A stretch of DNA of 64,000 bases from Spirochaetota bacterium. Lineage in GTDB: Bacteria; Spirochaetota; UBA6919; CBDBPB01. The stretch's first letter is position 1. Every line of letters begins with the position of its first letter. The DNA lies in the NCBI GenBank assembly GCA_965208615.1, contig CBDBPB010000001.1, positions 224,001 to 288,000 on the forward strand. Direction: 5' to 3'. Below, piece by piece: positions 44,895 through 62,148 of this stretch. Both the position numbers and the translations under genes were made by a program. The notes under the pieces are model-generated. The model saw nothing but the letters and a program-made list of their open reading frames with translations, had not been told where the DNA came from and made no database searches.

Positions 44895-45007
44895 GACAAT
44901 CCCTAATTTAATGTAGAATACATATAATAAATTTATAAGATTAAGTCAAGTTAACTTATTATGATAGATTATTGTTTATATAGCTTTAAAATTAACTAAT
45001 TAAAAAA

Positions 45008-45925
45008 TTAAGGCCTAAATCCCACTACAACAAGATTATTACTATTACTATATTGGACTTCTTTAATAAAACTTAAATTATTACTATAGTCAATAGTAAA
45101 TCCAATAACCTTAGTACTTCTATTGTCATTATCACGAAAAATAGCAACCCATATACCATTACCATAAACAATATTAAGAAGCAAGCCCACATTTTCTACA
45201 ATATTTATTTTTTTACCCTGAGTATCCAAATTATTAAATATGAGTATACCAGTTTTATTTTGGATACTATTAGAATTAACTATAGCAACCCATTTACTAT
45301 TACCATAAGCCATCTTAGTAACCCTAGAAGAAAATACTCTATGATCATTCCAGCTATCTCCATTATGACTTGTATATAATAAATAATTAGTATTATTAGT
45401 AAGCAAAGCCCATAAACCATTACCATAAGCAATACCAGTAACTTCAGTACCATTAAAAATAACACCATCAAGGTAGTTCCATTCACTACCAAAAGAGTAT
45501 TTGTATAGCCTACTATCAAAAGTTACAGCAATCCAATTACCCTTGCCATCAGTGGCCAGATCAGTAAAATTATTAATATTATTAGCTATTTGACCCTTAC
45601 TTGTCCAAGTAGCACCATCGTCAGTTGAGCTAAAAAGCTGTCCATTCCTTGTCAGTGCAAGCCAATGATAGTTATTACTTGTTGTATTTACTTTGCCGTA
45701 TGCAAGACCAACAAATCTACCACCTGTAGTACTAGATATATTAAGCATGCTTACTTCAGACCAGCTTTCAGCATTAGTTAACTTATAAGCCTTATCAGCC
45801 GATAGCATAAGCCATAAACCACCACTCTTACCATTGCCTAAAAAGCCGTTTCCAAGACTAATACCTTGAGAACCACAACTAATAAAGAGTAACAGTACTA
45901 AAAAACAAAACATCTCTTTTTTCAT
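45008..45925 (-). CDS. YGNG-repeat lipoprotein, array member 5 (divergent C-terminal half)
   Basis: Same signal peptide; ends VVVGFRP. Confidence 0.9.
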   Translation of the reverse strand: MKKEMFCFLVLLLFISCGSQGISLGNGFLGNGKSGGLWLMLSADKAYKLTNAESWSEVSMLNISSTTGGRFVGLAYGKVNTTSNNYHWLALTRNGQLFSSTDDGATWTSKGQIANNINNFTDLATDGKGNWIAVTFDSRLYKYSFGSEWNYLDGVIFNGTEVTGIAYGNGLWALLTNNTNYLLYTSHNGDSWNDHRVFSSRVTKMAYGNSKWVAIVNSNSIQNKTGILIFNNLDTQGKKINIVENVGLLLNIVYGNGIWVAIFRDNDNRSTKVIGFTIDYSNNLSFIKEVQYSNSNNLVVVGFRP

Positions 45926-46044
45926 GACAATCCCTAATTTAATGTAAAATAAATATAATAAATTTATAAGATTAAGTCAAGTTAATTTGTTATAATAGGT
46001 TAGCGCCTATATAGTTTTATAGTTGAAATTAACTAATTAAAAAA

Positions 46045-46918
46045 TTAAGGCCTAAATCCCACTGTAGTAAATCTAGGAGTTGTTGGAATGCCAGTTATAG
46101 TCTTATAATCTATTTTAACTGTAGTAATAGTATTAAAGCTAACCGGTAGTGACGCTTTAGTTCTTACGACAACCCATTTACCATTACCATAAGCTATATC
46201 AATAAAATTAGCATTATTAGTATTATTACTATTAATAATAGCATCAAGACCATTTTTAAGAAACCAAAGAGTACCACCGCTTGTCACAGCAGTCCATATA
46301 TCATTGCCATAAGCTATGTTAGTATAGCCACTTCCTGCAGGATTGCCCCAGTTATTTCCATTACTACTTTTATATATACCACCACCAGATATCAAAGCCC
46401 ATAAACCATTACCATAACTAATACCCTTAACTAATACCCTTACCTTGAGTATTATTACCAGGTAACTTACTATTAGTCCAATTATTAGGATTAGAAAAGC
46501 CGTATTTATGTATTCTATTACTAGCTAAAGCAATCCACTTACCATTGCCATCAGTGGCCAGATCAGTAAAATTATTAATATTATTAGCTATTCGACCCTT
46601 ACTTGTCCAATCAGTACCATCGTCAGTTGAGCTAAAAAGCTGTCCATTCCTTGTCAGTACAAGCCAATGATAGTTATTACTTGTTGTATTTACTTTGCCG
46701 TATGCAAGACCAACAAATTTAGTACTAGATATATTAAGCATGCTTACTTCAGACCAGCTTTCAGCATTAGTTAACTTATAAGCCTTATCAGCCGATAGCA
46801 TAAGCCATAAACCATCACTCTTACCATTGCCTAAAAAGCCGTTTCCAAGACTAATACCTTGAGAACCACAACTAATAAAGAGTAACAGTACTAAAAAACA
46901 AAACATCTCTTTTTTCAT
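46045..46918 (-). pseudogene. YGNG-repeat lipoprotein, array member 6, disrupted by a 13-bp tandem duplication
   Basis: TAACTAATACCCT occurs twice (46415-46427, 46428-46440); removing one copy joins ORFs 46427-46918 and 46045-46395 in frame. Confidence 0.9.
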
Positions 46919-47009
46919 AACAATCCTTAGTTTAAAATGATGTCAATATAATATATTTAGAGTATTAAATCAAATTATTTACTATGAAAGGAGTTATAAG
47001 ATGTTATAG

Positions 47010-47413
47010 TAGGTTATTATAAAGAGGTTCTAGACTTATTAATTTTTATAGATATAAACTGTTCTATTATTTTAATTCCCATAGAAAGCATATAATGTCA
47101 ACATAGAATATTCTAATAATCCGCCCTATCCTTTTATAGAACGGCAAATCAGTTATCACTTCGTAAAGGTCTATAATTCCTAGTCTCAATAAGGGATTCT
47201 TAATAGCTCTCGAAGTGATGACTACTTGCATAAAAAGTGATATTTTGTGTTCATTGCTAAGGCATTTAAGCAGTACTTAAAGAGCATAAAGGGATAACCT
47301 GCTTGATACAAGAAAATAACTTTTCCATGAATATTTTAACTTTCCTGTTTCACAAAGAAATCTAAAATCTATCTACCTTTACGTTATATGTCTTCTTTTT
47401 GCCTTGTATGACT
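47010..47413. repeat. Dispersed repeat family A, long copy (possible decayed mobile element)
   Basis: Inverted homologue of ~57296-57751; 47182-47251 vs 57506-57575 match at 69/70. Confidence 0.88.
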
Positions 47414-47568
47414 CGTCATAACTCTATCATAAAATGATAACTAAATTATTAAACAATATCACTCTAAATAAACTAAATTATTATTAAAAAAAAATACCTT
47501 CTTATTACGTTTGATAGAACATCTGCTAACTTATCACACCTCTTTAACAACCTTTCTATAACTTGATA

Positions 47569-47646
47569 ATCTGTATTTTTTAAGTTTTAGATATATAAAC
47601 TAGCTTAGAATACTTTTGGTTTACACTAATAGAACAATTAGTAACA
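47569..47646. repeat. Dispersed repeat family B, diverged copy
   Basis: CTTAGAATACTTTT...TACACTAATAGAACAATTAGTAAC. Confidence 0.82.
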
Positions 47647-47836
47647 CAAAGTCTAAACGTAAATGTTTATATTTATCCCCATTGTCAATAACCTCAACTT
47701 GATGAACTGACTGTTATCCTTTAGTTATAAGCATTATAAATAGCCCCCGCTTTCTTACTTTTTCCTCTTTAAAACTGTCAGCAATGCTTTTCTTAAAAAT
47801 TACCGTATTATCTAAAATCTAGCTTGCTATTAACTA

Positions 47837-47964
47837 TAGCTTTTAGATGAAAAATTATTATAACATAATTCCTAAATAAATCTTATCTGTATTTTTTTAA
47901 GTTTAAAAAAGATAAATTACCTTAGAATACTTTTGATCTGCACTAATAGAACTATTAGTAACAA
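47837..47964. repeat. Dispersed repeat family B, long copy
   Basis: Near-identical to 37880-38007; directly abuts the conserved array intergenic sequence GGTTAGCGCCTATATAG. Confidence 0.9.
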
Positions 47965-48011
47965 GGTTAGCGCCTATATAGCTTTATAGTTGAAATTAAC
48001 TAATTAAAAAA

Positions 48012-48853
48012 TTAAGGCCTAAATCCCACTGTAGTAAAATGATTACTAGTAAACTGAAATTGAGCATTATTACTCTGTATCTGATTGATCTAGCATCAAC
48101 AGTAAAGCTAAAAAGCGATCCATTGTCTCCAACAGCAACCCATTTACCATTACCATAAGCTATATCATTAAAACCAGAATAACCAGTATGTCGAATATGA
48201 CTTCCTGTGGCAATATCCGTGAATACCATTATATTACCCCCGCCTACACCAACCCACTTGCCATCACCATAAGCTATATTATCCAAATCAGTAATTCTTA
48301 CACTATATGTCCAATTAGCCCCATTATCAATACTTGTATATATATCCCCATTATCACGAACCAAAACCCACATACTACTACCATAAGAAACCCCAAGAAA
48401 CCTAGCACCTGGTATTGGAGCAATAGGATTCCAACCACCCCCAGAGTTTACATATACACTATTACTATCACCAACCGCAATCCATGTATTATTAGCATAA
48501 CCCATATCATTAAAGACGGCACTTGTTATTGCACTAGTATATGTCCAACTAGAGCCGTTGTCAGTTGACTTAAGAAGTTCACCAGAACTGCTTACTACAA
48601 GCCAATGAGATTGTCCATATGCTAAACCAGAAAAAACAATATTATTACTATCAGATCGATAATACCATTTTATACCATCTTCTGAGGTATAAACATCCCT
48701 ATTCCCTGTTAGAGCTATCCAATGTACGTTACTATTATCTATACCATTGCCTAAAAAACCAGTCCCAAAACTAATGCCTTTAGGTCCACAATTAATAAAA
48801 ATTAAAAGTATTAGTATTATTAATATTAAAATCTTAAATAGTCTTCTTTTCAT
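48012..48853 (-). CDS. Divergent YGNG-repeat lipoprotein, array member 7, frameshifted near the C-terminus
   Basis: Lipobox FINC, GISFG.GFLGNG, YG.G.W blades; the conserved end ..HFTTVGFRP* (stop 48012-48014) is in a different frame from ORF 47996-48853. Confidence 0.82.
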
Positions 48854-48962
48854 AAATAAACTCTCTATAACTATACTCTATTTCTAGTATAATAAGTATA
48901 GCTAACTATAGCAATATAAACTTTTCTGACTGCCTATTATAAAAACATATATTTATAAAATA

Positions 48963-49860
48963 CTAAGGTTTAAAAGCTACTGTAGTAAAATTATCAGCCG
49001 TAGAAGTATTGATAATTTTTGAATCTATAACGCTACCCTTAAAAGTAAAAGAAACTATAGCTCCACTATTACCTACAGCAACCCATTTACCATTACCATA
49101 AGCAATATCATTTAAATCGTTATTACTAATAGTTTTATAAGCAACTCTAGTAGTGCTACTAGGCTTATCAAGCTTATAAATAAAACCTTTACTCCCTGAA
49201 GCAATCCATAAATTGTTACCACTAGCAATACTTTTTACATCTTTTAAAAAAATTATTATTACGAACTCCCACCTTTCCAGTCTCATATATAATGCCATCG
49301 CCAACTGCAACCAATTTACTGCTACTATATGTAAGCCCAGTAAATATTCTTTTGTCAAAAAGCCTTTTATGGATAGTTCTCCAGCTACCTTTTATATAAC
49401 TCGATACTCTTATAGTTACATCATCACCTGCTATAGCCCACCTATTATTACCATAGGCAATATCTCTAACTCCTTTTCCAGTCAGTTTACGAATGTATGT
49501 CCAACTTTTACCGTTTAAAGATGAAAAAAAACTACTTTCATTAGTTACCACAACCCATCTATAACCATTACTAGTTAAACCATATGCCACACCAGCAAAA
49601 TCATTGTTAATTATATTACCGCTATCATCCTTCATAGTGCCCTTGTCATCCCAAGCTATCCCATCAACTGAGGTATAAATATTACCTTTTTTCGTTAATG
49701 CTAACCAGTTAAAACTACTTTCATCATAATTAGCTTTACTACTAAGAAAACCCATCTCACAATCATTTGAACCACTACTAGCACAAAGACCTTTACTTTG
49801 ACAAGAGAACAAAACAAAAACTAAAATCAATAATGAAAAACTAAATATTTGCCTATACAT
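48963..49860 (-). CDS. Divergent YGNG-repeat lipoprotein, array member 8, split by a +1 frameshift
   Basis: Lipobox LFSC, blades, FTTVAFKP end; removing one base from the 7-nt run at 49246-49252 joins ORFs 49222-49860 and 48963-49358. Confidence 0.82.
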
Positions 49861-50106
49861 AATAAATACCTCTATATTTAACTTAAGATGTTCAAACTAT
49901 TTATACTCATATTATTAAACTTATACGTTACCTTCATACAAATCCCTCTACTTATATTATATAGCTAAATGATTTAAAATCTATAATAGTTTATAGCATT
50001 CTTAATTGTCTTAGTCACCCTAAAAAACAAAATAAAAATAAAATCCTGACTCATAATGTCTTGAGATTAACCGATTATTATTAAATCACATATACAAGGT
50101 AAAATA

Positions 50107-51612
50107 ATGACCCTACACAAAATGTTTTTAAAATCAGCACTAAAACATAAAAATATTATAGCTATATACGATCAAGCAACAGGCAAAAATATAACCTATA
50201 AAAAACTTATACTCCTATCAATCATATTCGCAGACAAAATTAAACACTACAAAAATCAAAACATCGGTATAATGATCCCAACATCAGCAGGGGCAATTAT
50301 ATCCACATTGGCAACCCTAATAACAGGTAAAACTCCAGTTATGATAAACTATTCAATGAGTGCAATAAAAAGCTCTGTCTATGCACAAAATAAGTGTCAA
50401 TTTAATACAATATTAACCTCCAAAAAATTACTGGATAAGCTTTCTATTAAACCCATTAAAGATATGGTATTCCTAGAGGATATCGTAGCTAACCTTAGTA
50501 TAATAGACAAAATAAAAGGACTTATTAAATCTATATTCCCCCATACTATCTACAACAAAGGCAATGAAAATGATAACGCCGTAATACTCTTTACCTCAGG
50601 TAGTGAGAAAGACCCTAAGGCTGTCCCCCTTAGTCATAAAAATATTATCCACAACATAAACGGCATAAATATGGTGTTTGACTTTAAAAATAATGAAATC
50701 TTTATGTCTATTTTACCTCTCTTCCACATATTCGGACTGACAACCTCCTTCTGGCTACCCATAACTAAGGGATATAGCTTAATAGCTCAACCTAATCCCC
50801 TTGAATATCAACATGTATCCGATAATATAAAAAACTATAATGCCACCTGTATAACCGCTACACCAACGTTTTTTAGGGGTTATCTTAAAAAATCACACAA
50901 AGATGACTTTAAATCCCTTAGAATAGCAATATCAGGAGGAGATAAGTTACCAAAAGCCCTTGTAGACGAGTTCTTTGAAAAGCATAACGTTATGATCTAT
51001 GAAGGATACGGTACCACAGAGACTAGTCCGGTTATATCAAGTAATACAGCCCATTATAATAAACCAGGTAGTATAGGTAAGCCTTTACCAAACGTTAAAG
51101 TCAAAATAGTAAACGTAGATAATAATAATGAACTATCCACAAATAAAATTGGTAAAATCATAGTAAAAGGCGATTTAGTCATGAGGGGGTATATAGATGA
51201 ACCAAATATAACGATAAAAGACGGCTGGTACGATACAGGGGATATGGGACTAATAGACGAAGACGGCTTTTTATGGCACAAAGGTAGACTAAAACGATTC
51301 GTAAAAATAGGCGGCGAAAGAGTATCCCTTATGGCTGTCGAAGAAGAAGCTATAAAAGTAATGCCAGATAACTCATTATGCTGTGCAGTAGAAATACCAA
51401 ACAAAGCTAAGGGTGCTGAAATAATATTAGCCATAACTAAAAAAGTAGACCAAAAACAAATAATAAAAACTATAAAAAACGCCATAGGATCAATAGCCAT
51501 ACCCAAAAAGTTTATATATTTAGACGAACTGCCAATAATGAGTAATGGAAAAATCGACTTTAGACTAACTACTAAAATATGTCATGAAAAACTCTATGAA
51601 AAAGCTAAATAA
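50107..51612 (+). CDS. AMP-binding enzyme resembling the acyl-ACP synthetase domain of Aas
   Basis: ILFTSGSEK.PK.V.LSH.N, LP.FH.FGL, EGYG.TETSP, WYDTGD.G, GRLKRF.KIGGE, GK.D. Confidence 0.9.
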   Translation: MTLHKMFLKSALKHKNIIAIYDQATGKNITYKKLILLSIIFADKIKHYKNQNIGIMIPTSAGAIISTLATLITGKTPVMINYSMSAIKSSVYAQNKCQFNTILTSKKLLDKLSIKPIKDMVFLEDIVANLSIIDKIKGLIKSIFPHTIYNKGNENDNAVILFTSGSEKDPKAVPLSHKNIIHNINGINMVFDFKNNEIFMSILPLFHIFGLTTSFWLPITKGYSLIAQPNPLEYQHVSDNIKNYNATCITATPTFFRGYLKKSHKDDFKSLRIAISGGDKLPKALVDEFFEKHNVMIYEGYGTTETSPVISSNTAHYNKPGSIGKPLPNVKVKIVNVDNNNELSTNKIGKIIVKGDLVMRGYIDEPNITIKDGWYDTGDMGLIDEDGFLWHKGRLKRFVKIGGERVSLMAVEEEAIKVMPDNSLCCAVEIPNKAKGAEIILAITKKVDQKQIIKTIKNAIGSIAIPKKFIYLDELPIMSNGKIDFRLTTKICHEKLYEKAK

Positions 51613-51745
51613 CTAAGAAAATATATTATTAATTATCAACCCATCAAGTATATTAACAATAATATAAAATTACCTTGACTATGATAGCAAATAAATATAA
51701 ATTTGATGTTCTAATCATATATAACATTAATTAAAGGATATTATT

Positions 51746-51946
51746 ATGAAAAAGAAAATAGATCGCTCAATTGTTAAAGTCAAAAAGAAGCATGGACTAA
51801 GACAAGGTAGAGGGTTTAGTATAAAAGAACTATCCGAAGCAGGTATTACTCCATATCACGCTAAGATTAGTGGAATAGCCATAGATAAAAGACGTAAGTC
51901 TAATAATCCTTCTAATGTTGAGGAAATTAAAAAGCTTAAAAAATAA
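51746..51946 (+). CDS. Ribosomal protein eL13 (L13e)-like protein
   Basis: R.GRGFS..EL..AGI....A...GI.IDKRRKS....NVE.IKK matches the archaeal/eukaryotic L13e core; AAAGGA RBS; TTGACT-17-TAAATT at 51675-51703. Confidence 0.8.
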   Translation: MKKKIDRSIVKVKKKHGLRQGRGFSIKELSEAGITPYHAKISGIAIDKRRKSNNPSNVEEIKKLKK

Positions 51947-51999
51947 GCTAAGTTCATACATTTATACGCAATCTAAAACAAATATTGAAATACTATATG

Positions 52000-52153
52000 A
52001 AAACTATATTGCTCCAAAAACTCCTAATATGACTGGTAAGAGCAAAGGTAAAACTTATAGAGGTTGACGATAGACCCTTAGTATTCAAAGTTAAGGTGTT
52101 TGACAGTGTAGAGCTTATTAGTTAAGGGTATGCACGAAAGATTTATAATTTAA
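52000..52153 (+). pseudogene. Remnant of a FlK-type (fluoroacetyl-CoA) hot-dog thioesterase
   Basis: From 52036: VRAKVKLIEVDDRPLVFKVKVFDSVELIS*G, then MHERFII* after a frameshift; resembles the FlK C-terminus. Confidence 0.7.
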
Positions 52154-52708
52154 TTATAGGGTAGGCAAGTCTCTCTTACCATCATAACAAGGTATACCAC
52201 CATTAACATAGGCAATCCACGTTTTTCTATACTTATCAGCCATATTACTAATACCGCTAATCTCTTTATCACTAAGGCTACGCTTAACAATAGCCGGTGA
52301 ACCCATAATAAGAGAGTTAGGTTCAAAAGTCTTACCCATCGGTATAATAGAACCAGCCGCAATAATAGAGTTATCAGATATAACCGATCCATCCATAATA
52401 ATACTCCCCATGCCTATTAAACAATTATCCCCAATACGACAGGCGTGTATAACTACACTATGTCCAACAGTAACATTATTACCAACAACAGTACTATAGT
52501 TATCAGCAACGTGGATCACCGTATTATCCTGGATATTAGTATTTTCACCAATGGTAATGTCGTTAATATCCCCACGTAAAACAGCGTTGTACCATATACT
52601 AACACCCTTTTTTAAAATCACTCTTCCAATAACCTTTGCACCATTAGCAATAAAGCTATCCTCGTGTATGGATGGTACTCTATTAGTAAAATCCATAATA
52701 ACTCCCAT
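52154..52708 (-). CDS. Gamma carbonic anhydrase family (YrdA/PaaY-like)
   Basis: IG.V......SIW..AVLRGD.N.I.IG..TNIQD..VIH, VTVGH...HAC, LIGMGS. Confidence 0.93.
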   Translation of the reverse strand: MGVIMDFTNRVPSIHEDSFIANGAKVIGRVILKKGVSIWYNAVLRGDINDITIGENTNIQDNTVIHVADNYSTVVGNNVTVGHSVVIHACRIGDNCLIGMGSIIMDGSVISDNSIIAAGSIIPMGKTFEPNSLIMGSPAIVKRSLSDKEISGISNMADKYRKTWIAYVNGGIPCYDGKRDLPTL

Positions 52709-52738
52709 TAAGAATTAATAGTACGCCATATAAACAGC

Positions 52739-55168
52739 CTAGTTAGGATTATCCTCCTTTTCTGTACTGGATACAGCTACAACAAAATCATTATCCTTAA
52801 CATTAACAAGCCTAACACCAGATGCAGTCCTACCAAAACTTGATATACCCTTTACAGCAGTCTTAATAACCATACCCTGTGAAGTTATAATAACAACTTC
52901 TTCGTCAAGAGTAACGGCATGTACAGTAGCCACATCACCAGTTTTTTTATTTACACCAAGATATATTTGTCCAGCAGTACCCCTACCGTGAGCCTGTAAA
53001 GTACTAAACCTAGTTAATTTACCATAACCGTTTTTACTAACAATAAGTAAACGCTTATTACTAGATACACGCTCCATACCAATAACCTCATTACCTTTTT
53101 TCATACGTATACCAATAACTCCCCTTGCGGCCCTACCCATTTCTCTAATATCATTTTCCCTAAGCCTAAGGGCAAGACCCTTTTTAGTACAAAGAACTAT
53201 ATCAGATTTTCCATTACTAAGAACTGCAGATATAAGTAAATCGCCCTCATCAAGATTCATAGCCTTAATACCCCTTGTACGAGCATTAACAAAATCCCTA
53301 ATAACGCATCTTTTTATAATACCGTTTTTAGTAACTAATATAATAGGCCTATTTTCATTATAGTCCTTAACGGGTACATAAGCCTTAACAACCTCACCCT
53401 CATTAAGCTGTAATAATATTTTAATACTCCTGCCTCTTGTTGTACGACCACTTTCTGGTATTTCGTGTACTTTAATATAAAAAGTACGACCATAATTAGT
53501 GAAAAACATTATATAGTCGTGAGTGGATGCCACAAGTAAATGTTCAATATAGTCATCCTGTTTTACGTTTGCACCGGATACACCCACACCACCACGTTTT
53601 TGCTTTTTATACGTGCTAACAGGTAATCGCTTTATATAACCACCAATGGATATGGTTACAACATTATCCTCTTTAACAATTAAGTCCTCAGTCTCAAATG
53701 AGTCTAATGATGGAACAATTTTAGTACATCTTTTAGTTTTATATTTTGACTTCATTTCTAAAAGTTCATCTTTCATAATGCGGTATTGAATGTCATCACT
53801 ATCTAGAATGGCCTTTAGCTCTTTTATTAGCATTAACAGCTTATCATATTCCTCTTGGATTTTACCATGCTCTAATGCAGTTAAACGCTGTAAACGCATA
53901 TCAAGGATAGCCTGAGCCTGTATTTCAGTAAGGCTAAAATTATTAATAAGTCCGTTACGAGCAATATTAGCATTATCACTAGCCCTAATAAGTGCTATTA
54001 TTTTATCAATATTGGCTAAAGCAATAAGAAGGCCTTCTAATATATGGGCACGTTTTTCAGCTTTATTAAGGTCAAAGTTAGTTCTGCGTATTATTACTTC
54101 TTTTCTATGAGCAACATAATTAGTTATAACTTCTTTTAAATTGAGAACTTTTGGCTGATTGTCCACAAGAGCAAGCATAATAATACCAAATACACTTTGT
54201 AAGCTAGTATGAGAGTATAACAGATTTAATATTATTTTTGTATTAGCTCCTTTTTTAATCTCTATAACAATACGCATACCGGTTCTGTCGGACTCATCTC
54301 TTATATCACTGATCCCCTCTATTTTTTTATCCTTAACCAAGGATGCAATTTTAATAATCAAATCAGCCTTATTGACCTGATAAGGTATCTCAGTAATGAT
54401 TAAAGCTTCTCTATCGTTTTTAAAGATCTCCACATCCACTTTAGCTCTAACAGTTACCTTCCCTCTTCCAGTTAGGTATGCAGAAGAAATACCTTCCTTT
54501 CCATAAATTATACCATAAGTAGGAAAGTCAGGTCCCTTAATATAAGTCATAAGTTTTTCAACGAGAATATCCTTATCATCAATGACAGCACAAACACCAT
54601 CAATAACCTCAGCCAAGTTATGGGGAGGTATATTAGTAGCCATTCCCACAGCAATTCCAGTACTACCATTAACTAATAAGTTAGGCACTCCAGCAGGCAG
54701 TACAACAGGCTCATGCAAGCTATCATCAAAGTTTAACTGGGTGTTTACAGTTTCTTTTTCTATGTCCCTTAGGAGTTCCATAGAGTAGTTGGTCATTCGA
54801 GCTTCAGTATACCTCATAGCGGCAGGCATATCACCGTCTACAGAGCCGTAATTACCCTGTCCATCTATTAATAAGCTTCTCATAGAAAAGGTTTGTCCCA
54901 TTCTAACAAGAGCATTATATACAGCCGCATCACCATGAGGATGAAATTTACCTAAAACTTCTCCGACTATTCTAGCCGATTTTTTATAAGCTTTACTTGG
55001 TATAATGCCCATTTCATTCATTGCATATAGTATACGTCGGTGTACAGGTTTTAAGCCGTCTCTAACATCAGGCAAAGCTCTACTTATTATGACGCTCATG
55101 GCATAAGTTATATAAGAGTCTTTCATTTCGACTTCAATTGGTATTAGTATTACATTTCCGTTAGACAA
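52739..55168 (-). CDS. gyrA: DNA gyrase subunit A
   Basis: [34 protein letters not shown], GyrA-box QKRGGVG, C-terminal beta-pinwheel. Confidence 0.97.
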
Positions 55169-55318
55169 TATTTTACTCCAATTTATATAAGTTACAAAGG
55201 GTAGAAGTTAATAGAGATAAATATAATTAAATTAGACTAAACTGAAAATAAATTAATGTTTTTGATATTGATGTTATAAAGGTATTTCGATGTAGACCTT
55301 GTATAGGCATTTATATAA

Positions 55319-55390
55319 GTTATGTTACTGGTTGTTCTAATAGTGTATATCAAAAAGACTTTAGGGAACTTATATATCTAAAAACTAAAA
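55319..55390. repeat. Dispersed repeat family B, inverted diverged copy
   Basis: Reverse complement reads ..TTTTTAGATATATAA...CTTTTTGATATACACTATTAGAACAACCAGTAACATAAC. Confidence 0.7.
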
Positions 55391-55494
55391 TAATTAGTAA
55401 GACCCCAGCCCAATGCTTTTTATAAAATGTAAATAAGAAATTGCAGTATGGAATGAATACTAAATTCTTAAAAGGTATGTCTATTTTTATCGAA

Positions 55495-55728
55495 TTATTT
55501 TATTATATCCCTTACTACTAACATTAGTATACCAACTAGTATGCTCGTTATCATTGCAACTATTATTTTCATCATACCTTTTAGTTCTGATATATCTTGC
55601 TTTAACTCAAGCTTGACATCCTTAATCTCGTTTTTAAGCTTCTCTACTTTGACATCAGTAATCTCAGCTTCGTGTATCTGGCTAGTAACTTCTCTTTTTA
55701 TCTCTTGCTTTAACTCTTCACTTATCAT
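55495..55728 (-). CDS. Small coiled-coil protein with C-terminal TM anchor (Bdr/DUF1640-like architecture), copy 1
   Basis: EIKDVKLELKQDISELKG heptads followed by a hydrophobic tail; GAGG RBS. Confidence 0.7.
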   Translation of the reverse strand: MISEELKQEIKREVTSQIHEAEITDVKVEKLKNEIKDVKLELKQDISELKGMMKIIVAMITSILVGILMLVVRDIIK

Positions 55729-55787
55729 CTTTGCCTCTTCTGGAAATGAATACTAAATTCTTAAGAGGTATATCTATTTTTATCGAA

Positions 55788-56075
55788 TTATTTTATTATA
55801 TCCCTTACTACTAACATTAATATACCAATTAGTATGCTTGTTATCATTGCAATTATTATTTTCATCATACCTTTTAGTTCTGATACGTCTTGCTTAACAC
55901 TTGATATTTTATTGTCGAGCTTATTTTCTATTGCTTTTAATTCTACTCTTAGTCTTGATTCAACTCCAGTTATCTCATTTTTAAGCTTTTCTACTTTAAT
56001 GTCAGTGATCTCAGCTTCGTGGATTTGGTTAGTAACTTCTCTTTTTATCTCTTGCTTTAACTCTTCACTTATTAT
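55788..56075 (-). CDS. Tandem copy 2 of the coiled-coil/TM protein (95 codons; ATA where copy 1 has ATG)
   Basis: Manual translation IISEELKQEIKREVTNQIHEAEITDIKVEKLKNEITGVESRLRVELKAIENKLDNKISSVKQDVSELKGMMKIIIAMITSILIGILMLVVRDIIK*; 18 codons longer than copy 1. Confidence 0.65.
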   Translation of the reverse strand: MISEELKQEIKREVTNQIHEAEITDIKVEKLKNEITGVESRLRVELKAIENKLDNKISSVKQDVSELKGMMKIIIAMITSILIGILMLVVRDIIK

Positions 56076-56235
56076 CTTTGCCTCTTCTGAAAATGCTTGC
56101 GGCTTTATAGTGAGAGTGTAGATACTCTTCTATTGCAAGCTTGATTAGCATTTAATGAATTCTTCCTTTTTGAGTTTATTTATGAAGTATAACATAAGTT
56201 GCCTTGTGTCTTTATCGATTACGACTATCTTTTAT
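56065..56235 (-). pseudogene. Possible decayed ribbon-helix-helix regulator gene
   Basis: KIVVIDKDTRQLMLYFINKLKKEEFIK, then after a frameshift MLIKLAIEEYLHSH; GAGGTG RBS-like site near 56255-56260 and TTGACT-17-TATATT at 56282-56310. Confidence 0.4.
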
Positions 56236-56323
56236 TTGTCTATTTTGTTAATTACACCTCTAACTTAATTACTATATTGTAAATATAGTATAATCTGTTA
56301 ATTTAGTCAATTCTATGTTATTA

Positions 56324-56819
56324 ATTGTTCTAGTAGTTAGGTACGGTTGAAACAAAGATATAAAAATATAATTTATTGGCCCCACAGCTAGTTTCAATTC
56401 CTTATAGGTACGGTTAAAACAACCAGCCTAAAAATCTATGACGCTTTTGAATCTTGTGTTTCAATTCCTTATAGGTACGGTTAAAACTACAAGCATATAG
56501 AGATAGATTAAGGTATAGATATTCGTTTCAATTCCTTATAGGTACGGTTAAAACCCAGTTTCTTTAATTGTAATGCCCATGTTGAAAATCTGTTTCAATT
56601 CCTTATAGGTACGGTTAAAACCATTATCGATTTTTGAGATCAGTGATTCTATTCTACGTTTCAATTCCTTATAGGTACGGTTAAAACTTGATTGCATTCG
56701 CATTCACATTCATCATCATCGTTAGTTTCAATTCCTTATAGGTACGGTTAAAACGAGTTAGTCACCGCCGTTATAACTAGCTAGCCTCTGTTTCAATTCC
56801 TTATAGGTACGGTTAAAAC
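56324..56819 (-). CRISPR. CRISPR array: 7 identical 30-bp repeats, 1 partial terminal repeat, 7 spacers of 35-37 bp
   Basis: GTTTCAATTCCTTATAGGTACGGTTAAAAC at 56391, 56458, 56525, 56592, 56658, 56725 and 56790; partial repeat ending 56353. The minus strand reads GTTTTAACCGTACCTATAAGGAATTGAAAC (ATTGAAAC handle typical of class 1, often I-B/III). Confidence 0.98.
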
Positions 56820-56964
56820 CCATTTACAACTTATAATATAACAATAAGTTATAATATACATTTCTTAAATTTATTCCCAAACCTCCGATAGTGTATTTTA
56901 AATAATTAATAACAAATAATAGCTAACACCATAGGTTTAAATAAAACTATTTTTTAAAAAAAAA
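56820..56964 (-). promoter_or_regulatory. CRISPR leader
   Basis: AT-rich non-coding stretch next to the intact terminal repeat, opposite the degenerate end. Confidence 0.7.
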
Positions 56965-56965
56965 G

Positions 56966-57086
56966 CTTTCAATTCCTTAACGGTTAATACCACTCCTTTA
57001 GAAGTTTTCCCTAAAAGAAGAACTTTCAATGCTCACTTGTCCTGAATGTGCATTTATAATATAACATTAGGGGTGTAAAAAAGCAA
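56966..57086 (-). ncRNA. Candidate crRNA-like RNA (pseudo-repeat / 32-nt spacer / pseudo-repeat) with its own promoter
   Basis: Minus strand: TTGCTT-17 nt-TATATT with TGn (57086-57058), ..ATTGAAAG (57030-57023), spacer 57022-56991, GTATTAACCGTTAAGGAATTGAAAG (56990-56966). Confidence 0.65.
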
Positions 57087-57295
57087 ACCCTTTATAAAAA
57101 ATAATGGAGCGGGGAGTACAAACAGATTTTCTTTTGATTTCTCTTATCTTATTATATTATAACTATTTAAGACCTATAAAACCATAAGCCTTAGCATTTT
57201 TCTTTCATCCAAGTTTTGTCAGACTTAATTTGCGAAATTATAAACGAGTATTTTAAATACTTTACTTTATATTTACTTTTTGCGTTTACCATTTT

Positions 57296-57861
57296 TCGTA
57301 CAGGGCAAAGATGCAAGATGACATTTTATGATAATTTAATGGCTAAGAAGCTTCATATAAACGATGACATATAACGTAAAGTAGATATATTTTAGATGCC
57401 TTTGTAGAACAAGAAAGTTAAAATATTGATGAGAAAGTTATTTCCTTGTATCAAGCAGGTTATCCTTGCATACTCTTTAAGTGCTGTCTATTTGAGTTAG
57501 CAATTAACACAAAATATCACTTTTTATGCAAGTAGTCATCACTTCGAGAGCTATTAAGAATCCCTTACTGAGACTAAGAATTATACACCTTTATTAAGTG
57601 TTAAGGAATTTGCTGTTCCATAAAGACTTAAAAGGGATTATTAGAATATTATATATTGACTTTATATGTAACTTTCTATGGAAATTAAAAATAATAAAAC
57701 AGTTTATACCTATAAAAATTCATAAGCTTAGAACCTCTCTACAATAACCTAATAAAAACTTTGATAACAACATAAACTTCCCCTTTAAATAATAGCCCTT
57801 TAACACTCTCATCTCTCTTTAAAAGTTATATTGACTTTACTATTCCTTTTGCCTTGTACGA
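57296..57861. mobile_element. Repeat family A inverted copy bounded by a 14-bp imperfect inverted repeat; possible non-autonomous or decayed element
   Basis: TCGTACAGGGCAAA (57296-57309) vs TTTGCCTTGTACGA (57848-57861), 13/14; interior homologous to 47010-47413. Confidence 0.5.
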
Positions 57862-57964
57862 CTAAAAATAAGTGAATTATGATCCAAATTTCTTAATATA
57901 TTAATCTTGCTATATAAACTTTTGTTACTCTTTTTCTATAACCTATGCTATATTTTAAAAAAAC

Positions 57965-58336
57965 ATGAGGCAATTTATGAAAAATGAAAAAAATAAACAA
58001 GAAAATCATAGACCATGGGGCTATTACGAAATCCTTTCCTCAAAAGAGGATCACAAGGTTAAAAGAATTATTGTCAAACCCAATAAACGTCTAAGCCTAC
58101 AAAAACATAAATACAGATCAGAACATTGGTACATCGTTAAAGGTAATGCCGTCGTTACCCTCAATAATAATAATATACCACTAAAAATCGGCAATGCAAT
58201 AGATATTCCAAAAGGTGCCGCTCATAGAATTAGTAACCACGATAATGAAAATCTTGTTTTTATCGAAATACAAACCGGAACCTACTTCGGTGAAGACGAT
58301 ATTGAACGTCTGGAAGACGACTTTGGACGTAATTAA
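57965..58336 (+). CDS. Stand-alone mannose-6-phosphate isomerase type II C-terminal cupin
   Basis: RPWG.Y, KVKRI.V.P..RLSLQ.H..RSEHW..V.G, IEIQTG.YFGEDDI.RLEDDFGR. Confidence 0.93.
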   Translation: MRQFMKNEKNKQENHRPWGYYEILSSKEDHKVKRIIVKPNKRLSLQKHKYRSEHWYIVKGNAVVTLNNNNIPLKIGNAIDIPKGAAHRISNHDNENLVFIEIQTGTYFGEDDIERLEDDFGRN

Positions 58337-58483
58337 TTCATAAAACCTTTTATCCATAATAAAATAACTTTAATAAATTAACTTTTATAACTTTTTTAAG
58401 TTTTTTTTTAGCCACAAAAGCGTTATATTTACTACTAAGATTTTTTATTAACTATTAAGATAGCTTTTAACGGAGGGATCCCA

Positions 58484-60028
58484 ATGAGTTATATAGAATC
58501 CCTTCTTTCTTTAACTTCTCTATTAGTGATAATTACCGGTCTTGCTGTAGGTTATATAGTTCGGTTTTTAATAGAAGCAAAAACGATTAAAAGTGCCAAA
58601 AATCGAGCACGTCAACTTATTAGTAACGCTAAAAAAGGAATAGAAGTAAAAAAACGGGAGGCCATACTAGAAGGAAAAGACCAAATTATCCAAGAAAAAA
58701 AAGAATTCGAAAAAGAAAATAAAGAACGTCGTAATGAAATTCAAAAACTAGAACAGAGGATATTAAGGAAAGAAGAAAATCTTGAAAAAAGAATAGACTC
58801 AATAGAAAAAAAAGAAAAACACTTTGAACAAAAAAAACAAGAAATAATTTCAAAAGAAAAAAACTTAAATAAAAAAAAGGAGCATATTCAAAAACAACTT
58901 GAAACTATTGCTGAGCTTTCAAAAGATCAAGCTAAAGAAGTTATCATTGACCAAATAAGAGATGATACAGAAAAAGATGCTCAAAAACTAATTAGCAAAA
59001 TTGAACAAGATGCCAAAATAACCGCTGATAAAAAAGCTAAGGATATTATTATAACTTCTATACAAAGAATAGCTCCTGAAATCACTCAAGAAGCTAGTAT
59101 ATCATCGGTCTCTTTGCCAAATGACGAAATGAAAGGTAGAATAATTGGACGTGAAGGAAGAAATATTAGAGCTCTAGAAGTTACTACAGGAGTAGACATT
59201 ATTATTGATGATACTCCAGAAGCTATTATACTATCTTGCTTTGACCCAGTAAGACGAGAAAAAGCAAGAATTGCTATTGAACGCTTAATCTCTGATGGAA
59301 GAATACATCCCGCTCGAATCGAAGAAGTGGTCAAGAAGGTTAGCGACGAAATAGAAAATACAATATACGAAGAAGGAGAAAAAGCTTGCTTTGATCTCAA
59401 TATACGAGGTATATCTTATGAGCTACAAAAGTGCATTGGAAGACTTAAATACAGATATAGTTATGGACAAAATATTTTAAATCACTCAAAAGAAGTGGCT
59501 AGACTGTGTAGTCTTATGGCTTCTCAGATGAACGCTAATGTTGATAAATGCGTTAGAGGAGGACTCTTGCACGATATAGGAAAAGGTGTGGTAAATGGAG
59601 AGGGTGAACATGCTCGAATTGGTGCTGAAATCGCTCAAAAGTATGGAGAGGACAAAGTTGTGATTAATGCTATTATATCACATCATTTTGATATAGAACC
59701 TGCTTATATTGAATCCATAATCGTTCAAACAGGTGATGCTATATCCGCTTCAAGACCAGGTGCAAGGCGAGAATCCTTCGATGACTATATTAAACGGTTA
59801 ACTAATCTAGAAAATATTGCTAATGATTTTCCAGGTGTAGAAAAGGCCTTTGCCATACAAGCTGGACGAGAACTAAGAATAATTGTTAATAATGATATTG
59901 TAAATGATATAGAGGCTAAAAAAACTGCTAAAAACATTGCAAAAAGAATAGAAGATGAAATGAGATATCCAGGACAAGTTAAAGTAGCTCTCATTAGAGA
60001 AACTAGGGTTATTGAATATGCAAGGTAG
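58484..60028 (+). CDS. rny: Ribonuclease Y
   Basis: N-terminal TM, coiled coil, KH domain MKGRIIGREGRNIRA, HD domain LLHDIGK, AIQAGRELR. Confidence 0.97.
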   Translation: MSYIESLLSLTSLLVIITGLAVGYIVRFLIEAKTIKSAKNRARQLISNAKKGIEVKKREAILEGKDQIIQEKKEFEKENKERRNEIQKLEQRILRKEENLEKRIDSIEKKEKHFEQKKQEIISKEKNLNKKKEHIQKQLETIAELSKDQAKEVIIDQIRDDTEKDAQKLISKIEQDAKITADKKAKDIIITSIQRIAPEITQEASISSVSLPNDEMKGRIIGREGRNIRALEVTTGVDIIIDDTPEAIILSCFDPVRREKARIAIERLISDGRIHPARIEEVVKKVSDEIENTIYEEGEKACFDLNIRGISYELQKCIGRLKYRYSYGQNILNHSKEVARLCSLMASQMNANVDKCVRGGLLHDIGKGVVNGEGEHARIGAEIAQKYGEDKVVINAIISHHFDIEPAYIESIIVQTGDAISASRPGARRESFDDYIKRLTNLENIANDFPGVEKAFAIQAGRELRIIVNNDIVNDIEAKKTAKNIAKRIEDEMRYPGQVKVALIRETRVIEYAR

Positions 60029-60050
60029 ATTTTTATTAAAGGGGAATTAG

Positions 60051-60686
60051 TTGAAAGATTTTTATAAGGGTGATGCATGGCGAGTTTTTAGGATTATGGC
60101 TGAGTTCGTTGAAGGCTTTGAAGAGTTAAGCAGAATAAAGCCAGCTATTACTATATTTGGTTCATCTAGAACCACTACAAATAGTATATATTATAAAAAT
60201 ACCATAGAACTAGCTAAAAAACTAGCTAAAAAAGGATTCTCTATTATTACTGGTGCTGGGGCTGGTATTATGGAAGCCGCTAATAAAGGCGCTAAAGAGG
60301 CTAAGGGAAGATCTATAGGCTTAAACATACAATTGCCCCTTCAACAAAAGGCTAACTCATATATAACCGACTTAATAGAGTTTAGGCATTTTTTTGTTAG
60401 AAAAGTTATGTTTTTAAGATATGCGACTGCTACTGTCTTTGTACCTGGGGGATACGGTACTATGGATGAGCTTTTTGAAACGCTAACCTTAATACAAACT
60501 GAACGAATTGAACCTATACCTATATATGTCCTTGGAAAAGACTATTGGAACGGCCTTTTTAAGTGGATTAATGATTTTATGGTAGGTGATGGTTGTATTG
60601 ATCACAGAGATATAGAGCTTTTGACTATAACTGATGATATAAATCTAATTGTTAACGATATTTATAACCACTACAAAAGTAATTAG
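60051..60686 (+). CDS. LOG family (TIGR00730) nucleotide phosphoribohydrolase
   Basis: WRVFRIMAEFVEGFE, IFGSSR, GIMEAANKGA, FFVRKVMF, PGGYGTMDELFE. Confidence 0.93.
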   Translation: MKDFYKGDAWRVFRIMAEFVEGFEELSRIKPAITIFGSSRTTTNSIYYKNTIELAKKLAKKGFSIITGAGAGIMEAANKGAKEAKGRSIGLNIQLPLQQKANSYITDLIEFRHFFVRKVMFLRYATATVFVPGGYGTMDELFETLTLIQTERIEPIPIYVLGKDYWNGLFKWINDFMVGDGCIDHRDIELLTITDDINLIVNDIYNHYKSN

Positions 60687-60711
60687 TTTAATTTAATAAA
60701 AGGAGATAATT

Positions 60712-61038
60712 ATGACTCGTGCTAAAAAGGTAAATCGTTTTTTACTGGGAGGCAGTTTATTAGTTGGAGGTATACTTACCTTTATTGCAGGACCAATATT
60801 AAAATATATAATCGGAGGTATACTTATATTATTCGGTGTTATATCCTTATCTGACCGTAGTAATAGGATGCCTGCTATGATAAGCCTTGTATTAGGGGCT
60901 TTATTTATATCTGCTAATTTGGGAATACCTATATTGGGCGGTCTTGCTAGTAGTTCTATTTCACTTCTTGGGATATTATCTATAGCCAGTGGAGGATATA
61001 TAAGTTATAGTGCTTATAAAAAAATAAACTCTTATTAA
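60712..61038 (+). CDS. Small multi-pass membrane protein
   Basis: About four Gly-rich hydrophobic segments; AAGGAG RBS. Confidence 0.75.
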   Translation: MTRAKKVNRFLLGGSLLVGGILTFIAGPILKYIIGGILILFGVISLSDRSNRMPAMISLVLGALFISANLGIPILGGLASSSISLLGILSIASGGYISYSAYKKINSY

Positions 61039-61101
61039 GTATATTGGCCTTTTATTAAGTATTAGTAGTAATGAAAGGTAAAAAAACTATTTTTAAGAAA
61101 G

Positions 61102-62103
61102 ATGGAGGTTAGAATTATGTTTAAATACTGTTTTTTAGTCATCTCTTTTATTTTGGTGACTTTTGGTTGTGATAAGGGTACTTTTATTAGCATTGGAACA
61201 GGAGGACAAACTGGTGTTTACTATCCTGTTGGACAAAATATCTCTAAGTTAGTTAATGCTAAAGAAAGTGATTATAAGGTTAAGGCAACGGCGGAGTCTA
61301 CTGCTGGTTCTGTTTATAATATAAACACGGTTTTAAGTGGTGGTTTTCATTTTGGTATTGCTCAGTCAGACATTCAATATTTAGCTTATGAGGGACTTGG
61401 TGATTGGAAAAAAAAGGGCAAGCAAAAAGATTTAAGATCACTTTTTTCTCTTCACTCAGAGGCTCTAACATTGGTTGCATCTGTAGACAGCAAAGTAGAA
61501 AATGCTCTTGACCTAAAAGGTAAAAAAGTTAATATTGGTTTACCTGGTACTGGACATAGACGTAATGTTCAAGACCTATTAACAGCTGTTGGTCTATCAG
61601 TAAAAGATATTAATGAAAAGTCGGTTAAGCCTATAAGTTCTTCGAGGTTAGTTCAAGATGAAAGACTCGATGCTTTCTTTTATACAGTGGGACATCCTAA
61701 TGGTAGTATTAAAGAAGCAACATCAGGTAGAATAAAGGTAAAACTTATCTCTCTTGACGACTTGGTTATTAAGGCTCTAACAGATAAATATTCTTACTAT
61801 ACCAAAACTAGTATACCCAAGTCTCTATATCCAAATAGTGCCAACACTGGTGATATTAATACCATTGGTGTTAGGGCAACTTTAGTTAGCTCTAAAAAAG
61901 TTAGTGATAACCTTGCTTATATAGTTACCAAAGAGGTTTTTGAAAACTTTGATAAAGTTAAAAACTTCCACCCATCATATAAGCTATTAAAAAAGGAAGA
62001 CCTTCTTCAAGGCTTATCAGCTCCTATTCACAAGGGTGCTTTAAAGTACTATAAAGAAGCTGGTCTACTAAGTAAGATTGATAAAAAGCTAATTATAAAA
62101 TAG
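61102..62103 (+). CDS. TAXI family TRAP transporter solute-binding lipoprotein
   Basis: IGTGG.TGVYYP.G, ST.GSV.NI, AQSD, DLKGK.V.IG.PG.G, GHPNG, P.H.GA.KYYKE; true start probably ATG 61117. Confidence 0.94.
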   Translation: MEVRIMFKYCFLVISFILVTFGCDKGTFISIGTGGQTGVYYPVGQNISKLVNAKESDYKVKATAESTAGSVYNINTVLSGGFHFGIAQSDIQYLAYEGLGDWKKKGKQKDLRSLFSLHSEALTLVASVDSKVENALDLKGKKVNIGLPGTGHRRNVQDLLTAVGLSVKDINEKSVKPISSSRLVQDERLDAFFYTVGHPNGSIKEATSGRIKVKLISLDDLVIKALTDKYSYYTKTSIPKSLYPNSANTGDINTIGVRATLVSSKKVSDNLAYIVTKEVFENFDKVKNFHPSYKLLKKEDLLQGLSAPIHKGALKYYKEAGLLSKIDKKLIIK

Positions 62104-62148
62104 TATAGCTCTTCTTTATTCATTAACTGATTGGCAAATGAGGGTGTA

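Follow-up and report, generated by a model that had tools for sequence, protein, structure and literature searches.

A minimal protein of the archaeal/eukaryotic L13e (eL13) family encoded in one order of Spirochaetota and probably acquired from an archaeon

Textbooks treat the ribosomal proteins found only in archaea and eukaryotes as markers of the domain divide, and their genes are regarded as being among the least transferable. A precedent for an archaeal/eukaryotic ribosomal family that has small, stand-alone homologues in bacteria is the L7Ae family, whose Bacillus members YbxF and YlxQ are RNA-binding or ribosome-associated. For eL13 (L13e), Yutin et al. (2012, PMC3353972) give in the relevant sections a range of archaea (chiefly from the TACK groups) plus eukaryotes, with no mention of bacteria, and the corresponding passages of Galperin et al. 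(2021, bioRxiv 10.1101/2021.01.31.429008) give the same range and likewise leave bacteria unmentioned. Here we describe an L13e-like protein of 66 amino acids (aa) that is encoded in a 64,000-nucleotide stretch of bacterial DNA (in the following "the window", i.e. positions 224001-288000 of a 449,428-base contig, the gene lying at 275.7 kb of this contig). The host is a metagenome-assembled genome (MAG) of a member of the Spirochaetota (2.46 Mb, 9 contigs, 99.4% complete, 0.5% contaminated). The protein differs from YbxF/YlxQ in fold and family, and also in distribution, as the L7Ae-type proteins are widespread in Firmicutes, whereas the L13e-type protein was found in one spirochaete order among the genomes searched.

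The closest described relatives are the short archaeal eL13 proteins of Thermoproteota, Bathyarchaeota and Nitrososphaerota (~64-85 aa), which belong to the same Pfam family, have the same invariant residues and are similar in length, in line with a first-pass annotation of the window that had likened the 66-aa product to the short archaeal form. The spirochaete forms differ from them in that they are devoid of ~4-5 residues found in front of the R-x-GRGFS motif in many archaeal eL13 proteins, and in having an N-terminal signature of their own, a score below the equivalog level of the archaeal profile NF008914 and a bacterial host. Moreover, archaeal eL13 has a known ribosomal location (PDB 9e6q), whereas such a location is putative for the window protein. 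Of eukaryotic eL13 (RPL13, ~200 aa) the core, i.e. the β-hairpin, H2, H3 and the start of H4, can be aligned, with residues 16-64 of the window protein corresponding to residues 68-117 of human eL13 (phmmer); in Foldseek the model reaches TMq values of 0.6-0.75 against eukaryotic eL13 at 30-39% identity. Eukaryotic eL13 additionally has H1, a long variable loop and H7, all of which are missing from the window protein; like the short archaeal forms, it comprises the hairpin, H2, H3 and the following helix. According to the sections of PMC10665555 that deal with human eL13, H1, the variable loop and H7 contact ES7L, ES9L and 5.8S rRNA, residues 1-100 (H1, β-hairpin, H2 and H3) bind 28S rRNA extensively, and RNA binding is mediated by H1, β-hairpin B1 and H7; an extra-ribosomal RNA binding is proposed there as well.

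Membership of the window protein in the L13e family is indicated by profiles, alignments and structure comparisons. The family profile PF01294 (Ribosomal_L13e) matches well above its gathering cut-off (45.8 versus 24.9 bits, E 8.1e-12; residues 13-57 on profile positions 57-101 of 180), which bears out the family assignment of the first-pass annotation, and NF008914, the equivalog profile of archaeal L13e, matches residues 13-65 on positions 23-75 of 83 (57.2 bits, E 9.7e-16). A phmmer search against the PDB sequences returned, at E 5e-8 to 1e-4, eL13 of yeasts, animals, plants and protists and one archaeal entry, 9e6q, the chain AH of which is named eL13. In an alignment of 15 sequences (the window protein, 11 archaeal L13e proteins and three further bacterial homologues) the window protein keeps 14 of the 14 invariant columns, namely R19, G21, R22, G23, F24, S25, E28, A32, A39, D47, R49, R50, S52 and N57, and in a larger alignment of 82 sequences it keeps six invariant and six nearly invariant columns. 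The core motifs R-x-G-R-G-F-S, E-L-x-x-A, D-x-R-R-x-S and N-V are thus all present.

An AlphaFold2 model based on the 82-sequence alignment (pLDDT 80.5, pTM 0.60) predicts a β-hairpin (residues 11-20) followed by three helices (residues 26-32, 36-42 and 55-65). When this model was compared with the PDB by Foldseek, 33 matches had E <= 1e-3; every one of the best 50 matches listed is a ribosome entry (TMq 0.57-0.75, 29-39% identity), and in 17 of the 50 the chain identifier is that of a chain named eL13 or L13 in the phmmer search of the PDB. In a protein atlas the top three clusters are archaeal eL13, with scores of 0.92-0.93. The 66-aa open reading frame (ORF) is a real, retained gene, and its product belongs, by sequence and predicted structure, to the L13e (eL13) family as a minimal member.

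Within the bacteria searched, the distribution of this gene is narrow. A PF01294 search found it in three of 41 relatives and in three of 401 genomes sampled from the phylum, and a profile built from ten spirochaete-type proteins, which is the better control within the phylum, found the same three of 401 genomes (E 1e-31 to 1e-33). The carriers are the window genome (G000) and both searched genomes of a second family of the same order (G001 and G002), i.e. all three searched genomes of this order, each with one copy. Neither profile matched in two genomes of the same class (88% and 91% complete) or in the other 396 genomes of the phylum. In 14 control genomes, ten of them bacterial, PF01294 had no match, even though they include Sulfolobus acidocaldarius, which we would expect to encode L13e, and this genome search may thus miss divergent short forms. 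A scan of species-representative genomes with narrow patterns returned one locus, the narrowness of the patterns giving this result little bearing on other phyla.

Larger collections separate the spirochaete type from its relatives. A profile search of 5.8 billion proteins lists 1028 proteins at E <= 1e-3, among which the spirochaete type forms 12 clusters at 98-120 bits, followed by a gap to <= 89 bits, where archaeal proteins start; an exhaustive phmmer search of 1.84 billion representatives gave 176 hits at the same threshold. All three spirochaete-type members with an organism name stem from Spirochaetota (P0171 and P0178, labelled 'MAG: ribosomal protein L13e [Spirochaetota bacterium]', and P0283, labelled 'hypothetical protein [Spirochaetes bacterium]'), and a homologous locus, L004, comes from 'Spirochaetia bacterium UBA6919'. 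The named relatives outside the spirochaete type are archaeal (Nitrososphaerota/Thaumarchaeota, Desulfurococcales, Acidianus, Bathyarchaeota and 'Euryarchaeota archaeon'), and a few metagenomic loci among the relatives look eukaryotic.

The presence of L13e-like domains is not confined to such small proteins. The top-scoring relatives after the spirochaete type are proteins of 130-146 aa that combine an N-terminal L13e core with a C-terminal helix-hairpin-helix domain, HHH_5 (P0026, P0179-P0186, P0191, P0193 and P0203), the only named one being from 'Euryarchaeota archaeon'. Five large proteins of 599-967 aa (P0042, P0086, P0103, P0150 and P0155) have the L13e-like domain as their sole Pfam match, located at the extreme C-terminus and above the PF01294 cut-off in three of the five; one of them comes from a Limisphaerales/Verrucomicrobia MAG and four are without organism name. 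P0086, P0103, P0150 and P0155 have a conserved central region in common, P0042 being less alike. As it occurs in fusions both in large bacterial proteins and in archaeal helix-hairpin-helix proteins, the L13e domain is, by these comparisons, a portable module.

Since the gene is restricted to one order of the phylum and its product is 50-62% identical to archaeal L13e over 45-65 aligned residues, acquisition from an archaeon is the most economical explanation, and a transfer from archaeon to bacterium followed by retention is well supported. The inter-domain transfer suggested by the first-pass annotation thus stands as the economical reading, and we consider it very probable that the window protein is a genuine L13e homologue gained in this way. 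Retention is indicated by the invariant residues, which are kept although the proteins of the three carriers are only 50-53% identical to each other. A protein of a known family has turned up in a domain of life where it was not expected, and this case, a solid one of inter-domain transfer of a domain-specific ribosomal-protein gene, is moderately surprising. As the first-pass annotation had foreseen, novelty is somewhat lowered by the fact that homologues from Spirochaetota have already been named 'ribosomal protein L13e' automatically; the open literature searched, supplements aside, yielded no paper on a bacterial L13e.

The gene and its surroundings in the window are as follows:

51746-51946, forward strand: ORF of the minimal L13e-family protein, 66 aa (ORF list; ATG at 51746, stop codon ending at 51946)
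51733-51738, forward strand: AAAGGA, Shine-Dalgarno-like, 7 nt upstream of the ATG (direct reading of the sequence)
51675-51703, forward strand: TTGACT / 17 nt / TAAATT, sigma-70-like candidate promoter (9 of 12 consensus positions)
51947-52153, no strand: spacer of 207 nt to the convergent hexapeptide-protein gene (ORF list)
50107-51612, forward strand: AMP-binding enzyme, upstream neighbour of the L13e-like gene
52154-52708, reverse strand: hexapeptide (gamma-CA-like) protein, downstream neighbour
52739-55168, reverse strand: gyrA, beyond the hexapeptide gene

The product (MKKKIDRS...RQGRGFSIKELSEAGI...GIAIDKRRKS...NVEEIKKLKK) is strongly basic, with 20 Lys and Arg versus 6 Asp and Glu residues and a pI of 10.6. 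The small basic protein and its motifs (RQGRGFSIKELSEAGI, GIAIDKRRKS and NVEEIKK), the Shine-Dalgarno-like word and the bacterial neighbours are all present as the first-pass annotation had described them. Its mention of a promoter-like sequence did not hold up to the same extent, as sites matching 9 of 12 positions occur eight times in the 900-bp region as compared to 5.5 +/- 2.4 times in shuffled sequences; as this count is within expectation, the TTGACT-17-TAAATT element is a promoter candidate at most. The start at 51675 given earlier refers to this element, the gene itself beginning at 51746. A sequence scan revealed no terminator-like site around the gene, and an Rfam scan of positions 45000-58000 gave no match besides clustered regularly interspaced short palindromic repeats (CRISPR).

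The gene is embedded in its bacterial surroundings. The composition is host-like, as had been stated earlier, with 31.3% G+C in the ORF (21% at third codon positions, GC3) versus 31.26% in the genome. Moreover, an independent Logan contig of 6263 nt spans positions 49247-55509 of the window with 0 differences and joins the AMP-binding gene, the L13e-like gene, the hexapeptide gene and gyrA, so that the flanks, for which a chimera had been considered, are bridged on both sides. The word depth of the run across the locus is ~4. The search of public runs returned one run with this stretch, its kind being unrecorded, and 0 RNA runs. Because this run is possibly the source sample, the Logan contig argues against a mis-join by the assembler, but not against every artefact. 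A further contig of the same run matches the window from position 51737 on and is unlike it upstream; it may represent a second strain or a relative that carries the gene in another context.

Based on these findings we propose that the ancestor of one order of Spirochaetota would have acquired the gene from an archaeon with a short eL13 (~65-85 aa), that its composition would then have become host-like and that it would have been inherited within the order. The protein retains only the eL13 core, in which a basic N-terminal arm is followed by a β-hairpin with the GRGFS turn at its end, a pair of short helices, the D-x-RR-K/R-S loop and a C-terminal helix. It would bind structured RNA via the surface of this core, the most probable ligand being the rRNA of the large subunit. 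Thus, it may be a ribosome-associated accessory protein specific to this lineage, supplementing the normal bacterial set and replacing nothing. We put forward the association with the ribosome or with rRNA as the reading that we favour, albeit as a tentative suggestion that falls somewhat short of being probable, and the same reserve applies to the complete account of transfer plus ribosome-associated mechanism. The more specific idea that the 70S ribosome of one spirochaete order carries eL13 on its 23S rRNA, at a site homologous to the archaeal one, appears rather unlikely to us.

Replacement of a bacterial large-subunit protein was considered and rejected, as all seven families tested (bL20, bL21, bL35, bL25, bL28, bL9 and uL30) are present in G000, G001 and G002; no vacated site is evident among them, and the L13e-like protein would thus be an addition and not a replacement.

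A number of observations weigh against a ribosomal role or, more generally, against the account given above. The completeness of the seven large-subunit families is one of them. The protein stays below the 96-bit cut-off of NF008914, i.e. it is homologous but not an equivalog by the NCBI rule, and the RNA-binding elements H1 and H7 of eukaryotic eL13 are missing. Translation-related neighbours are found in none of the three genomes, where metabolic and DNA genes, differing from genome to genome, surround the gene. Codon adaptation to the ribosomal-protein cluster has a value of 0.632, which ranks at the 62nd percentile among 2183 ORF proxies (genome mean 0.609, standard deviation 0.062, as compared to a mean of 0.692 for the cluster) and is ordinary and of little information. 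The protein also diverges faster than four proteins of the large subunit in the same genome pairs, with 50-53% identity versus 58% for bL21, 66-71% for bL28, 75-79% for bL35 and 74-79% for bL20. Furthermore, the domain at the C-terminus of large bacterial proteins indicates that the fold is used in other settings than a stand-alone ribosomal protein, and the direction of the transfer and the donor are read from the distribution only, most forks of the trees being open.

Several of these points speak for the strongest alternative, according to which the acquired L13e core is no longer, or never was, on the ribosome and has been repurposed as a small, basic nucleic-acid binder, which might serve, e.g., as an RNA chaperone, in the regulation of particular transcripts or as a nucleoid-associated protein. 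Such a role would agree with the genomic context, which is not translation-related in the three genomes or in the metagenomic contig L012, with the fast divergence and the ordinary codon adaptation, with the complete set of tested large-subunit proteins, with the fusions to the bacterial proteins of 599-967 aa (Limisphaerales/Verrucomicrobia in one case) and to helix-hairpin-helix domains in archaea, and with the extra-ribosomal RNA binding of human eL13 as proposed in the sections of PMC10665555 cited above. On the other hand, every invariant residue, shaped by one conserved rRNA site in archaea and eukaryotes, has been kept across order-level divergence, and neither the context nor the PADLOC and PHROGs libraries, which gave 0 hits for the protein, point to another target. 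We therefore regard a repurposed binder, one of the two functions considered in the first-pass annotation, as a possibility that has to be taken seriously, albeit one we would not call probable.

Either outcome would be informative for the question of how ribosomes gain proteins. A short eL13 kept intact in a bacterial order is a clean natural test of whether a foreign ribosome can adopt such a protein; alternatively, it may reveal other uses of the conserved eL13 core. If eL13 was indeed located on the 70S ribosome, domain-specific ribosomal proteins would be able to cross domains and become fixed, and this would be, as far as we know, the first case of a bacterial ribosome that has acquired a structural protein of the 'e' class. 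Interest in the protein would rise considerably if it were shown to be on the bacterial ribosome. Annotation pipelines, for their part, already assign the name 'ribosomal protein L13e' to these bacterial proteins on no evidence of a ribosomal nature.

The first-pass annotation had suggested an inspection of the 23S rRNA. A single 23S gene was detected in the genome (contig C6 of G000, positions 173100-176237, corresponding to L005:1501-4638; 3138 nt). It has a surplus of 12 nt near E. coli position 550 and an AT-rich insertion of 239 nt at about E. coli position 1162 (about L005:2724-2962), the latter being missing from E. coli and from another spirochaete compared. This position we take to be helix 45, where bacterial intervening sequences classically occur and where eukaryotes have ES15L. 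The insertion is predicted to fold into a long stem with a perfect base of 16 bp (minimum free energy, MFE, -57.6 kcal/mol, z -3.18) and looks like an intervening sequence processed by RNase III; it might or might not be related to the L13e-like protein. A search for 23S genes in five genomes found no match in the assemblies of G001 and G002.

With respect to the origin of the gene, several independent transfers from archaea into different families of the order have to be weighed against the single acquisition proposed above. The spirochaete-type proteins, 50-58% identical among themselves, are not closer to each other than to some archaeal proteins (50-62%), and free trees (250 rows x 73 columns, and a quick tree of 103 rows x 67 columns), in which most forks are open, place 16 spirochaete-type sequences in three groups and not in one clade (three changes needed). 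Gene context differs, too. In G001 (L002:861-1686) and in contig L012 (2483-4918) the gene lies tail-to-tail with a cluster of MobA-like, MoaE, MoaD and MoaA genes, whereas this arrangement is absent from the window genome and from G002, where the gene is located upstream of a 4Fe-4S ferredoxin-like gene. The synteny common to G001 and L012, however, speaks in favour of vertical inheritance, if only within that family. All spirochaete-type proteins have the N-terminal signature K-x-x-L/I-D-R-S-x-V-x-V-K-K in common and their hairpin region is shorter than that of the Nitrososphaerota forms, the profile sets their 12 clusters (98-120 bits) apart from all others (<= 89 bits), and each of the three searched genomes of the order has exactly one copy. 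Moreover, a tree constrained to hold the 16 sequences as one clade is not rejected and even has a marginally better likelihood than the free tree (by 0.83 lnL units, AU p 0.521). A single origin of the spirochaete type is thus compatible with the data, though not proven, and several transfers appear improbable. The nearest relatives outside the group are archaeal. With most forks open, the phylogeny that the first-pass annotation had envisaged identifies no donor, i.e. no sister group or donor lineage can be named from either tree.

Ancient vertical inheritance, with L13e present in an early bacterial ancestor and lost except in this order, would agree with the host-like composition, but with nothing more. 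It would require losses throughout the 398 Spirochaetota genomes outside the order, of which 0 carry the gene, and in the ten bacterial controls, and identity to archaeal proteins (up to 62%) is as high as within the order, rendering this scenario very improbable.

The formally best E-value in the search of the PDB sequences (9.5e-10) belongs to DotG/IcmE, a resemblance that was rejected as compositional because the score adds up 14 weak matches to repeats, none of them significant by itself (best i-Evalue 130). The likeness consists of the words G-F-S-x-K-E-L-K-x-A-G, i.e. one and a half repeats, and reaches neither the hairpin nor the RRKS loop or C-terminal helix of the window protein; the corresponding decapeptide-repeat profile PF25296 reaches 14.2 bits versus a cut-off of 45 with a single stretch (residues 23-43). 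An artefact, be it contamination by archaeal DNA, a chimeric assembly, an ORF arisen by chance or a spurious match due to repeat-like composition, might be suspected from the modest depth (~4) of the metagenome assembly and from this DotG/IcmE E-value, but is scarcely credible in view of the independent contig that connects the gene with bacterial neighbours at either end, the homologues in two more genomes of the order and on further Spirochaetota contigs, the match between ORF and genome composition, and the weakness of the DotG and PF25296 scores.

Some further features of the window may be mentioned. A CRISPR array (56391-56819) consists of seven repeats matching Rfam CRISPR-DR2 with 45 bits each and a period of ~67. 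The six ORFs scanned downstream of it (57965-63999) contain no Cas domain; they encode a cupin/mannose-6-P isomerase, RNase Y, a LOG-like protein, a protein without Pfam hit and parts of a TRAP transporter. Just upstream of the array, positions 55495-56121 form a locally repeated stretch with two similar pairs of short ORFs, where contigs of the run show alternative joints, one skipping 301 bases (55600 to 55902) and one returning by 347, and where the summed depth is 9.8-12.7 versus 4.1, which suggests that copy number or strains vary in this stretch. Finally, two or three paralogous putative lipoproteins of 285, 212 and 131 aa are encoded at 47996-49860. The 285- and 212-aa proteins, which have no match in Pfam, start with a signal-peptide-like stretch that includes a Cys, and all three have repeated Y-G-N-G-K-W-V-A-V-G-like motifs in common.
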